Source of the DNA: a virus
Direction: 5' to 3' (one strand)
DNA: 64,000 nucleotides
IMG/VR virus record: IMGVR_UViG_3300020477_001012
Coordinates: 1-64,000 of that record
A program made the translations under genes and the position numbers. Numbering within the stretch: the stretch's first letter is position 1; each line of letters starts with the position of its first letter. The notes beneath the pieces are model-generated. The model worked only from the letters and a program-made list of their open reading frames with translations, was not told where the DNA came from and searched no databases. Positions 25,720-45,855 of the stretch are shown here, one piece after another.

Positions 25720-26098
25720 ACAACGGACAATGGCTGCAAAGTGTCCAAAAATCAGTAAATATTTGTACAAAGTGAATAATTGGGCTGAAGTCTCACCTTA
25801 GTCCATCTGGTTTAGTGAGTGACTGGCGAGCTTACAAGGGTTCCAAGGTCAGGCAAAGAAAAAATCTAGGCGCTGGTGACAACCAACCTAGACCTGTGAA
25901 GCATTGAGTGGCTGATAGCATTGAGAGACTGAGAGCATTAAAGACCTGACTGCTCACTACCGCAGCTTGTTACCTGTATCTTATCTTCACAGGTATAAAT
26001 GGTCTTGGTGCGCCCCGAGGAGGATCAAGAGGATGATTACATATGGGGCCTTACCTACGTAGTTTAGCTAAGACACCCCTGAGAAGTGTCCGTGTTGT
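25720..26098 (+). ncRNA. Large structured ncRNA, family B, copy 1
   Basis: ORF-free; homologous to 45557-45855 with compensatory changes in three helices; the 5' ACAACGGACA can pair with TGTCC-GTTGT at the 3' end. Ends are approximate. Confidence 0.65.
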
Positions 26099-26175
26099 GA
26101 GACAACCACCCTTGCTATTTTCATGCCAAAACGGCAAAAAAACCGTGAAGATAAAACTCCCCCCTCTTATTTACG

Positions 26176-26253
26176 TAAGTTATTGACCTATAACGACTTA
26201 CGACATGGCATTCCCGCCCCGCGCGACGTAAACCCTTATGTGTAAACGACTTA
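26176..26253. repeat. 78-bp double-palindrome element, copy 1 of 8
   Basis: TAA-N19-TTA, a 28-bp GC-rich spacer, then TAA-N19-TTA (53-bp period), upstream of a promoter. Confidence 0.85.
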
Positions 26254-26296
26254 TGTCAATCTAGAATTATTTCTGATTTCTTTTTGTTTTTTGGTC

Positions 26297-26333
26297 TAAA
26301 GAACTTGACAGGTGAATGCCGATAATATATAAT
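26297..26333 (+). promoter_or_regulatory. Early promoter (sigma70 with a nested sigma28-like element)
   Basis: TTGACA-17-TATAAT overlapped by TAAA-17-GCCGATAA. Confidence 0.8.
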
Positions 26334-26370
26334 GGAAGCATAAGAAGTTACCACACACAAGGAACAAGAC

Positions 26371-26586
26371 ATGAAGAAGATCGACGCAACGGTTTGGGTA
26401 GGCGATGAACATGATGCCAACATGGTAGGTGATCGCACATGGATTACCATCCGCATTGGTGATCATGAGATTCTGGTGAACGTTGACCGATGGGAAATTG
26501 ACGATGCGCTGGAAGATCTGGAAGACGAAAAAGAATCCCAATTAATTCTAGAAAGAATGCGAGCGAGTGACCAGACTAGTCACTAG
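26371..26586 (+). CDS. Hypothetical early protein
   Basis: AAGGA RBS; directly after a promoter. Confidence 0.6.
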   Translation: MKKIDATVWVGDEHDANMVGDRTWITIRIGDHEILVNVDRWEIDDALEDLEDEKESQLILERMRASDQTSH

Positions 26587-26635
26587 GGTATAGTACAATA
26601 CAAGCATACAAGTAACACACACTAAGGAAAACAGA

Positions 26636-26893
26636 ATGAACATCACAACCAACAAGATCAACCGAGAGTACAAGGGCCACACAATTGCCATCGACATGAT
26701 CGACGAGATCGACCCCGATGGTACGATTGTGGTTCGCAAGATGGTATGCTATGTGGTCGCACCTAACGGTGACGCTGGACCGTTGCGAGTGTCGCCATAC
26801 ATTCCCCTTGATGAGATCCACGCCCACGCTATTGATTGGGTGGATGAGGGTTGCCCCGGAATTGGTAACCCATTCGCCCCGGCTTGGGCTTGA
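26636..26893 (+). CDS. Hypothetical early protein
   Basis: TAAGGA RBS. Confidence 0.65.
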   Translation: MNITTNKINREYKGHTIAIDMIDEIDPDGTIVVRKMVCYVVAPNGDAGPLRVSPYIPLDEIHAHAIDWVDEGCPGIGNPFAPAWA

Positions 26894-26951
26894 CATACAC
26901 GTTCAGTATGGTACAATTACAGAGTAACATTCACACACTAAGGAAAACGAC

Positions 26952-27194
26952 ATGACTTCATTTGACTTGCAGATTCACCCCGAAGAAACAGCCGCCGCCC
27001 GTGACTATGATGCATGGCAGGATCTAGCCCGAGAGATTGAAGAGGCTGAGCTTTCCGATATCAACGCAGAGTTGCAGCTTGCGTCTGAGGATGAGGACAA
27101 CTATGACGATGGCTGGCAGGATGAATATGAAGAGTATATTCTGAACCAAACACGATACGATGATGATAGGGATCTAGATTACTACGCATCGTGA
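26952..27194 (+). CDS. Highly acidic small early protein
   Basis: TAAGGA RBS; Asp/Glu-rich. Confidence 0.65.
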   Translation: MTSFDLQIHPEETAAARDYDAWQDLAREIEEAELSDINAELQLASEDEDNYDDGWQDEYEEYILNQTRYDDDRDLDYYAS

Positions 27195-27244
27195 GCGTAG
27201 TGTATCACCCCACCCACACGCCTAGAGCACAGAGGAGAGAGTAC

Positions 27245-27541
27245 ATGCGACAGATAGTCAACGCACACGGAACAAAGGCCAACGTGGTTGAGCACTTCAT
27301 GCTGGCCAACCATTGGGAATACTACATCATAGAAGCAGCGGATGAGGATGGGTATGCATTCGCCCTAGTAGTAGGTGATGCTACTGAGATGGGTAGCGTA
27401 TGGATGCCCGAGCTTGAGCCGTACATCCTACACCGTACCAATGACCTGAGTGATCTGCTTCCCCCTCCACAGTGGGGATGGGCTGATGAGATAGATGAAG
27501 AGTGGGCACCGGATGCGCTGGTGTGCAAGTGGCCGTATTAG
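27245..27541 (+). CDS. DUF2958-like protein
   Basis: WEYYIIE...AFALVVG..TEMGSV...EL pattern; AGGAG RBS before ATG 27245. Confidence 0.55.
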   Translation: MRQIVNAHGTKANVVEHFMLANHWEYYIIEAADEDGYAFALVVGDATEMGSVWMPELEPYILHRTNDLSDLLPPPQWGWADEIDEEWAPDALVCKWPY

Positions 27542-27579
27542 CCTAACCATCCGCCTAGCGGCCCACTACACCAATGGCG

Positions 27580-43842: not shown

Positions 43843-43847
43843 AGCAT

Positions 43848-43920
43848 GGGGTTGTAGCTCAGTGGTTAGAGCGCCGTTCTTATAAAGCGGTAGTCGCGGG
43901 TTCGATTCCCGCCAACCCTA
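43848..43920 (+). tRNA. tRNA-Ile(TAT)
   Basis: Cloverleaf; anticodon arm CCGTT-CTTATAA-AGCGG; A73. Confidence 0.85.
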
Positions 43921-43922
43921 CT

Positions 43923-43988
43923 CTGTCGCCGGTAAAGTTGAGTTTTATTCGGTTCTCAAGCGAGGTCACAGTCGTTCCAAAACCGAAT
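43923..43988 (+). ncRNA. Family-A small RNA, copy A4
   Basis: Starts 2 nt after the tRNA discriminator; P1 CTGTCGCC/GGTCACAG (one mismatch), pseudoknot ATTCGGTT/AACCGAAT. Confidence 0.75.
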
Positions 43989-44010
43989 CTTTTAATTTTC
44001 ATTTTATTTA

Positions 44011-44069
44011 CTACGCCAATAAAGGTGAGCTGGCGCCTCAACCGTAGGCGTCAGAATAGACAAGCGCCA
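44011..44069 (+). ncRNA. Family-A small RNA, copy A5 (divergent)
   Basis: AATAAAG-GTGAG...CTCA; P1 ACGCC/GGCGT; pseudoknot fully swapped to TGGCGC/GCGCCA; segment GCGTCAG-AATAGAC. Confidence 0.65.
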
Positions 44070-44086
44070 TTTTTTTAAAGGGATTT

Positions 44087-45355
44087 ATGATGAGGATAAA
44101 GGTTAAGCGTAATGCGAAGTTAATCGGATTAGATACACGAGAGATTGATGAAGACCACAAAAGGACGATCCAGTTGTGTAGACGTGTCTCAAAGTATATT
44201 AGAAAAGAAATAGTGGATGGGAATATTGTTGAGATCAATAAGCGGGTTATCTACAAAGATGGAACATCCTTAGACAATACCGCATTTAAAAACAAAGTCA
44301 GTCACCTGTTTGACGACGATGCTCATGCAGAGTCTCTTAGGAGAAATTCTGTAATCTATGTCATGGAGAGATATGCCGGATATATCAGTCGGAACGGACT
44401 GGATAGATTTCTAAAAATCAAATCACCCATCTCTATCAAGGATACCTCTTTTTATTTTAAAGACAACTTCAATAAGATAGATAAAGAGAATAAAATCCTG
44501 TACGTAAAAACAATGTTCACGGGGGACAGGGAATACAGGAAGGTTCCTTATAAGTATGTGCTTAAAGGAGATAAAATTTCAGAGGATAAGAAACATGGTG
44601 GCAATTTAACTTTTCCTCGCAAAAAGAACAAGGCAAAAACATATGTGATCGCTGTTGACTACGAGAGGGAACCTGCATACGAACCTGAAAAATTGATTGG
44701 GTTTGATCTTAATAAAGATAAGAAATCTTGGATAGTTCTTGACGATGGGCAAAGAATCACTCCAAATCAACAAATACAAGACTCCACAGAGAACATCCGT
44801 GTTTTAAATACAACTCTGGACAAGGATAAGAAGGCTCCTATTGATAAGAGAAGCCTTAGAAGCAAGGATAGGAGACCTATTAGGTTGAAGTGGAAGAAAG
44901 CTCATAGTAAACTAAAAGCTGAGATAAGCAAGGTGGCTGAGACTGTCGTGAATAAGGCTAGAGATGAGAAAGCACTGCTGTGTATTGACAGTGTTACAAC
45001 TGGGCAGAAAAATGGCACATTTGGTCAAGATCATTTAATCGAGACGCTTCAAGTAATGTGTGAGAACCAAGGTGTTCCATTCTATGTCGTACCATGCAAA
45101 AATACATCTCGTAGATGTTCATCTTGCGGGTATATCGCTAAGGGTAACAGGGTAAACACAGACGAATTCCATTGTGAAGATTGTGGTCATAAGTGTGACG
45201 CACAAAATAATGGTGCAAAAAATATTGTCTTTCAAGGTCAGAGAATGTATAATGCGGGTGTCCCCTATGGGAATTATAGAAGACGCGCAGTAGACACTCT
45301 GGTAAAAGAATACTCTCAACAAGAAAGTTCAGTTGATACCTCTGAGGCGAGTTGA
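44087..45355 (+). CDS. TnpB/Cas12f-like protein, probably nuclease-dead
   Basis: RuvC-I IGFDLN; RuvC-II LCIDSV (usual Glu is Asp); NTSRRCSSCG...FHCEDCG Zn finger; RuvC-III DAQNNGAKNI (usual Asp is Gln). No transposase gene nearby. Confidence 0.85.
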   Translation: MMRIKVKRNAKLIGLDTREIDEDHKRTIQLCRRVSKYIRKEIVDGNIVEINKRVIYKDGTSLDNTAFKNKVSHLFDDDAHAESLRRNSVIYVMERYAGYISRNGLDRFLKIKSPISIKDTSFYFKDNFNKIDKENKILYVKTMFTGDREYRKVPYKYVLKGDKISEDKKHGGNLTFPRKKNKAKTYVIAVDYEREPAYEPEKLIGFDLNKDKKSWIVLDDGQRITPNQQIQDSTENIRVLNTTLDKDKKAPIDKRSLRSKDRRPIRLKWKKAHSKLKAEISKVAETVVNKARDEKALLCIDSVTTGQKNGTFGQDHLIETLQVMCENQGVPFYVVPCKNTSRRCSSCGYIAKGNRVNTDEFHCEDCGHKCDAQNNGAKNIVFQGQRMYNAGVPYGNYRRRAVDTLVKEYSQQESSVDTSEAS

Positions 45356-45374
45356 GAGAGTACACAAAGGTATA

Positions 45375-45436
45375 CTGCCACTAATTAAGCTGAGTTACAG
45401 GGTTCTTACGCGAGGTGGCAGAAAGGCCAAAACCCT
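45375..45436 (+). ncRNA. Family-A small RNA, copy A6
   Basis: P1 CTGCCACT/GGTGGCAG, P2 TGAG/CTTA, pseudoknot AGGGTT/AACCCT; ends 4 nt before tRNA-Leu. Confidence 0.75.
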
Positions 45437-45440
45437 AAAT

Positions 45441-45525
45441 GCCGGAGTGGTGGAATAGGCAGACACAACGGACTTAAAATCCGTTGCTCATAATGGGCGT
45501 GTGGGTTCGAGTCCCACCTTCGGTA
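45441..45525 (+). tRNA. tRNA-Leu(TAA)
   Basis: Cloverleaf with a long variable arm; anticodon arm ACGGA-CTTAAAA-TCCGT. Confidence 0.92.
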
Positions 45526-45556
45526 CTATTCGTAAGATGATAATGGTAGTATAGTA

Positions 45557-45855
45557 TCATCGACTCACTAAATTTGTACAAAGACGTAATTGGGTACAGT
45601 CTTGCGTTCCTGACCCATGTGAGACAGTAAGTGACCGGCGAGTTTACGACGACTCCAAGGTATGGCAACCAAAAAAACTAGGCTCTGCTGGCGAGCACCC
45701 TAGACCTGTAAAGAGCAAATTGCAAAAATTATTAAGCCACTGAGAATCTACTAGCGTTAAAGTCCATACTGCTTACTAACACTACCTTGTTCCTGCGAAG
45801 GCTTTTATAGTTCTTTACAGGTACAAACGCTGTCGGTCCAGCCAGAGTATGAGTA
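45557..45855 (+). ncRNA. Large structured ncRNA, family B, copy 2
   Basis: Homologous to 25720-26098 with compensatory base changes; ends are approximate. Confidence 0.65.

Follow-up and report, generated by a model that had tools for sequence, protein, structure and literature searches.

Two copies of a large RNA in an uncultured phage

The window examined here is the first 64 kb of the 173,842 bp genome of an uncultured phage (IMGVR_UViG_3300020477_001012). It contains two copies of a large non-coding RNA (ncRNA), both on the + strand. The core of the type A RNA (approximately 290 nt) is at 25723–26012, where the late (leftward) and early (rightward) arms of the genome diverge, and the core of the type B RNA (approximately 300 nt) is at 45536–45840, following a TnpB-like gene and a tRNA-Leu gene. 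An earlier note on this DNA had placed the copies in these same settings. The two RNAs represent a real, covarying, pseudoknotted ncRNA family that matches no catalogued family. The newness claimed is that of the RNA family and its fold, and the functional kind may prove to be analogous to that of the GOLLD and ROOL RNAs.

In a pairwise alignment, the copies share approximately 75 % identity across approximately 300 nt. When the whole genome was searched with nhmmer using a profile built from 78 family members (E≤10), only 25724–26039 and 45535–45868 were recovered. Hence, the proposal that two copies of one large RNA are present was correct, and they are the sole pair in the genome. The loci originally given were also right but their ends needed adjustment. 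Copy B starts at about 45536 rather than 45557, because a 5′ hairpin (P1) had been overlooked, and the core of copy A ends at about 26012; the end first assigned to it ran into a separate element located at 26035–26133.

Exact-motif scans of viral and metagenome collections, followed by nhmmer, identified 118 full-length homologues, 78 of which are unique. All of them lie on contigs from viruses or from metagenomes, the latter mostly marine. A blastn search of 50,697 GenBank phage records with three different family members found no matches, and an exact-motif scan of prokaryotes, with one genome for each of 185,579 species, found two, neither of them homologous (L198 shows nothing and L199 only a 47 nt match at chance level). 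As the terminase of the window phage shares at most 26 % identity with that of any GenBank phage, this lineage has no cultured relative. One metagenome contig (L277) includes a full type-B-like copy at 3244–3579 and, 2 kb downstream on the same strand, a partial copy consisting of the 3′ third only (5267–5381).

A covarying fold

In order to assess the fold, pairing was scored in a MAFFT alignment of 24 sequences (alignment A5) that was not fitted to the structure, giving 1200 cells for the 50 pairs of nine helices, of which three are pseudoknots. Standard pairs were found in 99.4 % of the cells, compared with 86.3 % in shuffled alignments, and compensatory changes affecting both sides were seen in 33 of the 50 pairs; none of 500 shuffles matched these values. 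Sliding the 3′ partners by 1–3 columns reduced pairing to 30–46 %. RNAalifold, applied to 25 sequences, predicted P1, P4, P5, P6 and P7, with a compensatory change in 24 of 35 pairs. The RNA folds into about ten helices that are locked by at least three long-range pseudoknots. The invariant G–U pairs U131–G294 and G158–U293 in alignment A5 would be A–C mismatches if the opposite strand were the one transcribed, and the RNA is therefore the + strand.

P1, the 5′ hairpin, pairs 25725–25729 with 25742–25746 in type A and 45538–45542 with 45555–45559 in type B. It is followed in type A by P3 (25749–25755/25807–25813), which encloses P2 (25782–25790/25797–25804, visible in the alignment). MAFFT misaligns P3, but many unrelated sequences make up this helix, which has at least five contiguous base pairs in 57 of 58 family members. 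P4 (type A 25814–25820/25952–25958; type B 45626–45632/45771–45777) and P6 (type A 25847–25854/25943–25951; type B 45659–45666/45762–45770) bring distant strands together, and P5 (type A 25828–25832/25839–25843; type B 45640–45644/45651–45655) and P7 (type A 25866–25870/25887–25891; type B 45678–45682/45699–45703) are more local. A further hairpin seen in the alignment, P8, frequently carries a GNRA tetraloop (GCAA, GUGA or GAAA). The three compensatory helices that had been picked out from the two window copies correspond to P4 (AGTGAGT/GCTCACT), P6 (GGTCAGG/CCTGACT) and the pseudoknot PK2, and all of them hold in the alignment. A fourth candidate pairing, AUUUGUA/UAUAAAU, was left out because one variable position (U, C, G or A opposite an invariant A) is uncompensated.

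Three pseudoknots and an alternative hairpin

The helix CCTGTGAAG/CTTCACAGG, now PK2, had been said to cross the other two, and both the coordinates (type A 25893–25901/25985–25993; type B 45705–45713/45813–45821) and the covariation bear this out, as it crosses P4 and P6. The pairing is CCUGUGAAG/CUUCACAGG in the type A copy of the window and CCUGUAAAG/CUUUACAGG in the type B copy. A scan for stacks of covarying columns revealed two further long-range pairings. PK1 joins the P1 loop to a strand 3′ of P4 (type A 25732–25736/25963–25967; type B 45545–45549/45782–45786), and is GGUUG/CAACC in type A and GGUAG/CUACC in type B. In PK3, the loop of P5 pairs with the 3′ tail (type A 25835–25838/26004–26007; type B 45647–45650/45832–45835), and here CAAG/CUUG in type A is replaced by CGAC/GUCG in type B, a double compensatory change. 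Despite changes on both sides, all three pseudoknots are 100 % canonical in the 78 sequences. Covarying positions include one in PK1 that is UA in 48 sequences, AU in 27, GC in two and CG in one, one in PK2 that is GC in 39, AU in 31 and UA in eight, and two in PK3 (AU in 48 and GC in 30; GC in 53 and CG in 25).

The invariant strand ACAGGUA, which takes part in PK2, is also able to pair with a nearby UACCUGU to form a local hairpin, H (TACCTGT at 25971–25977 with ACAGGTA at 25989–25995 in type A). Since H takes up the 3′ strand of PK2, the two are mutually exclusive. In each of the 58 sequences that it was possible to anchor, H can have at least five base pairs, but for some type B RNAs the top match falls in the P4 strand and is spurious. 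From the alignment, H also appears possible in a clade in which the usual 5′ strand is missing and a shifted one is used in its place. Hairpin H is compatible with the data and plausible, if short of proven, and a conformational switch between PK2 and H is possible.

Two ancient types

A FastTree phylogeny of the 78 sequences placed 46 type A and 22 type B RNAs in separate, unmixed groups (support 0.91). RNAs of one type share a median identity of 64 %, and those of different types 57 %. Both types are found together in three genomes, namely the window phage, a 166,833 bp record judged 100 % complete and a 57.6 kb fragment, and in these genomes they are in the same orientation and 20–28 kb apart. 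This co-occurrence indicates that the duplication is old and that both copies have been retained. The persistence of paralogues side by side across a phage lineage argues that each does something that the other cannot.

The type A locus

A sigma70-type promoter (TGGGAA, a 16 nt spacer, TATAAT) is found at 25692–25719 on the + strand, with 5 nt between the end of its −10 hexamer and P1 of the type A RNA. A promoter is fixed at this position in 43 of the 46 unique type A homologues (at least nine of 12 matches), often as TTGCAA-17-TATAAT, and in these 43 the −10 hexamer ends 5–7 nt before P1.

In 20 loci, the type A RNA lies 210–250 nt from the same divergently transcribed gene (24684–25472, minus strand, in the window). 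This neighbour is universally conserved but has no Pfam or PHROG match. It was considered as the source of an RNA-binding partner and dropped, the only leads being weak tail-fibre-like ones from the ESM Atlas that all score below 0.9. Beyond it, a sigma-like gene leads into the remainder of the structural arm on the left, where the terminase and portal genes are at 13–17 kb. In the window, a DUF1501 gene and a small open reading frame (ORF) at 23003–24639 (minus strand) are found between the conserved neighbour and the sigma-like gene. This insertion is missing from relatives, and it looks like a host-derived auxiliary gene, which offers a weak hint as to the host. To the right, the first 12 kb of the rightward arm (26100–38800) include few ORFs of more than 100 aa, many small ones, and consensus sigma70 promoters. 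One such promoter, new after the type A RNA and with 12 of 12 matches, is at 26305–26333.

In about half of the type A loci, including that of the window, the core is followed by a second conserved element that ends in a run of T residues. In the window it occupies 26035–26133 (+ strand), with the blocks TTTAGCTAAGACACCCC and AACCACC followed by the T-run; the blocks TTTAGGTAAGACAC and TTG are also part of the element, which occurs once in the genome. The stretch 26035–26133 was considered as a candidate 3′ domain of the RNA, but RNAalifold found neither a consensus structure nor consensus pairs for it. A conserved ORF was rejected because its indels have lengths not divisible by three and stop codons are present in some relatives. 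The element could be a binding site for a protein or sigma factor, or a signal for the 3′ end of the RNA. In one homologous locus (L179, about 6870–6930), a short tandem repeat with units GTAGTGGCTT is found between the type A core and the second element.

The position of type A raises the question of a role in DNA metabolism, either as an origin primer or R-loop transcript or as a packaging ring resembling that formed by the packaging RNA (pRNA) of phage phi29. Type A lies at the minimum of the cumulative GC skew and at the strand switch, beside the arm that carries the structural and packaging genes. The phi29 pRNA, which is approximately 174 nt and is known only from phi29-like phages, likewise has an early promoter close to where the early and late regions meet, and short covarying loop–loop pairings build its multimer. 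PK1 and PK3 are short, type-specific loop-to-strand pairings that could in principle form between molecules. However, the short pairings found here may be within one molecule, the GC skew of this genome simply tracks transcription direction, type B lies within the early arm at a distance of 20 kb, and neither a packaging link nor any other tie to the terminase and portal genes was seen. We consider a role of this kind very unlikely.

The type B locus

The type B RNA is approximately 20–28 kb along the early arm, in most cases where a cluster of tRNA and transfer-messenger RNA (tmRNA) genes ends. Its location is syntenic, between conserved early genes. In the window, a tRNA-Leu(UAA) gene at 45441–45526 (+ strand) ends 11 nt before P1. 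Of 31 loci with a type B or type-B-like RNA, 17 have a tRNA-Leu(UAA) or tRNA-Arg(UCU) gene in the same orientation 10–300 nt upstream, usually as the last gene of the cluster. Directly after the type B RNA is a near-consensus sigma70 promoter for the next gene (TTGACA-17-TATTAT, 45885–45913, + strand), and most type B homologues have an equivalent promoter straight after the core. As the next gene has its own promoter, type B is not needed as a leader for it.

The tRNA clusters of several of these phages include permuted (two-piece) tmRNA genes, at 53193–53622 in the window, 9712–10033 in L186, 2875–3193 in L280 and 2368–2684 in L310. The encoded tag peptides differ (AKPSFALAA, VEENFALAA, ANESFALAA and GVENYAMAA).

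A gene for a TnpB-like protein of 422 aa, with a Cas12f1-like TNB domain, is at 44087–45355 (+ strand), and copy B is 180 nt downstream of it. The RNAs associated with TnpB (omega RNA, or reRNA) and the HEARO RNA are likewise structured, pseudoknotted RNAs found next to the gene for an RNA-guided nuclease, and it had been suggested that the RNA family might supply a second scaffold for the TnpB-like protein. The order TnpB, tRNA-Leu(UAA), type B does recur in another contig (L261, 4119–5634), where the TnpB is 41 % identical. Among approximately 30 type B loci, however, a TnpB gene is beside the RNA only in the window phage, the near-identical L227 and L261, that is in just two independent type B loci, and no such gene was seen in the remaining type B loci for which sufficient flanking sequence is available, or in any type A locus. 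Moreover, the complete tRNA-Leu gene intervenes between the nuclease gene and the RNA, there is no overlap with the 3′ end of tnpB, and the RNA does not have a variable 3′ end resembling a guide at the boundary of an element. The RNA follows the synteny of the phage genes and not that of a transposon, and TnpB is therefore a neighbour and not a partner; an omega-like guide or scaffold RNA for this nuclease is the least probable of the explanations considered here, and we give it almost no credence. The recurring gene order suggests that the transposon-derived gene is either an old resident of this tRNA-proximal position or has invaded it repeatedly.

Relationship to known RNAs

When Rfam 15 was searched using cmscan, no family was matched by the whole window at the gathering score, by either copy at E≤10, or by eight diverse relatives at E≤1; the only matches obtained were to tRNAs and the permuted tmRNA. 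The earlier note had described a conserved large RNA that could not be recognised, and with a covarying, pseudoknotted fold and no Rfam match this description stands. Nor was there any match to a group I intron or HEARO, either of which would have provided a known family for it. As far as covariance models can tell, this excludes membership of GOLLD, ROOL, HEARO, introns of groups I and II, RNase P, tmRNA, the T-box and the small ribozymes that are known.

Features other than the search scores are also relevant for some of these families. Unlike a group I intron (RF00028), the RNA is not located within a gene but begins at a promoter or behind an intact tRNA, and the order of the helices differs. 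HEARO, the omega RNA of IscB (RF02033), was rejected as the genes neighbouring the RNAs are tail-fibre-like, sigma-like and small early genes. In the case of bacterial RNase P RNA (RF00010 and RF00011), there was again no match, and the 5′ end here is a local hairpin, P1, and not a helix that closes on the 3′ end.

An RNA of this size, with numerous unpaired nucleotides that never vary and several pseudoknots in its core, is nonetheless typical of large ribozymes, and type B adjoins tRNA genes. A ribozyme might cleave itself to define the ends of transcripts near tRNAs or early mRNAs, or might process the tRNA and tmRNA precursors of the phage. However, none of the Rfam ribozymes (RNase P, group I and II introns, glmS, HDV-like, twister and others) was matched by the window copies (E≤10) or the eight relatives (E≤1), the helix order is unlike that of RNase P or group I introns, and no cleavage site could be deduced. 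On balance, we regard catalysis of this sort as improbable.

GOLLD (RF01998) and ROOL (RF03087) are the closest analogues. They are large, ornate ncRNAs with multiple pseudoknots that are found in phages and prophages, often beside tRNA genes, and are without a known biochemical job. The RNAs described here share the location in viral and metagenome contigs and, for 17 of the 31 loci noted above, the adjacent tRNA. The comparison with GOLLD and ROOL made previously is therefore apt as an analogy, but membership is not supported by the covariance models. At approximately 580 and 800 nt, GOLLD and ROOL are also much longer than the approximately 300 nt RNAs found here and their helix plan differs, and here there are two conserved paralogues per genome, one of them with a fixed early promoter at a strand switch. 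According to a cryo-EM study (PMC12286853), GOLLD and ROOL form RNA-only multimers. By analogy, a role in an RNA-only assembly is conceivable for the new family.

The T4 stable RNAs known as species 1 and 2 (rnaC and rnaD) are approximately 120–140 nt, are located in the tRNA cluster and are processed from the same precursors as the tRNAs. They are stable phage RNAs of no assigned function in or at the end of a tRNA cluster, and the likeness to type B is one of position. They are not known to be pseudoknotted. In a catalogue (PMC10690425) that lists over 10,000 structured RNAs from viruses, the motifs are 29–151 nt.

A stand-alone RNA or an early leader

The explanation that we favour, though with no better than an even chance of being right, is that the sequences encode a stand-alone, trans-acting, highly structured ncRNA, specified by two anciently duplicated genes in large, uncultured and mostly marine phages. 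Host RNA polymerase would transcribe type A as soon as infection begins, and type B would be co-transcribed with the tRNAs, with 3′ processing of the tRNA freeing its 5′ end. The mature RNAs, compact and structural, would act in trans, perhaps by scaffolding a phage or host protein or serving as a decoy for it, or by assembling from RNA alone as ROOL and GOLLD do. The 3′ region may toggle between a closed, knotted state (PK2 with PK3) and an open one with the local hairpin H, and this toggle may gate assembly or binding.

Some observations weigh against this explanation. A Shine–Dalgarno (SD) sequence and start codon are found within 10–25 nt after the core at roughly half of the type A loci, an arrangement consistent with a 5′ leader that acts in cis. 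Downstream of the two window copies, no terminator was found. Finally, when H was scored on alignment A5, 91.6 % of cells paired but all of the changes were one-sided, leading to G–U pairs; there was no compensatory change and the shuffle control was not exceeded.

The strongest alternative is a cis-acting leader RNA for the early arm, acting either by processive antitermination in the manner of the put RNAs or as a switch, under the control of a ligand or protein, that uses PK2 and H to regulate translation or stability of the downstream message. In addition to the SD and ATG close to the core, transcription of the rightward arm always begins with the type A RNA, the same 3′ strand has two mutually exclusive pairings, and there are two copies per genome that are co-directional with the long early arm. 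The put RNAs of phage HK022, putL and putR, resemble the new RNAs in this respect, as they are also two diverged copies per genome, each located shortly after an early promoter and oriented in the same direction as a long early operon, and are folded RNAs that act with no dedicated adjacent protein gene. An early promoter and two copies are features of the new family too (43 of 46 for type A), but type B mostly follows tRNAs. The put RNAs are also only approximately 70 nt, with two stem-loops and no known pseudoknots, and at approximately 300 nt with three pseudoknots the RNAs described here are several times the size of known antiterminator RNAs. Several genes follow type A and they are unrelated between loci, which speaks against a gene-specific riboswitch. 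Type B trails tRNAs instead of leading genes, and no consistent pairing between the SD sequence and the RNA was seen. In the window, there is a T-run after type A and both copies are followed by strong new promoters (26305–26333 and 45885–45913), which argues for a stand-alone RNA over a leader. Taken together, these features make a leader possible but clearly the less probable explanation.

A bolder version of the stand-alone RNA can also be put forward, though we consider it doubtful. The family could be a new class of catalytic or self-assembling phage RNA with a closed, triple-pseudoknot state that is switched on early, possibly by a host factor or metabolite via the PK2/H toggle, and acts on the host machinery or on the phage tRNA and tmRNA pool. 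The type-specific PK1 and PK3 would then keep types A and B orthogonal.

Significance

Large, deeply conserved RNAs with many pseudoknots are, to our knowledge, rare, and nearly all of those for which we know of a solved function are ribozymes, the cores of ribonucleoproteins or, recently, RNA-only cages. The RNA family described here has a very clean covariation record obtained from only about 80 sequences, and a start that is defined at a promoter. At approximately 300 nt, it is of a tractable size for cryo-electron microscopy and biochemistry. As the RNA would be made at the start of infection by uncultured marine phages, finding the job that it does could reveal a new, RNA-based means of taking over the cell.

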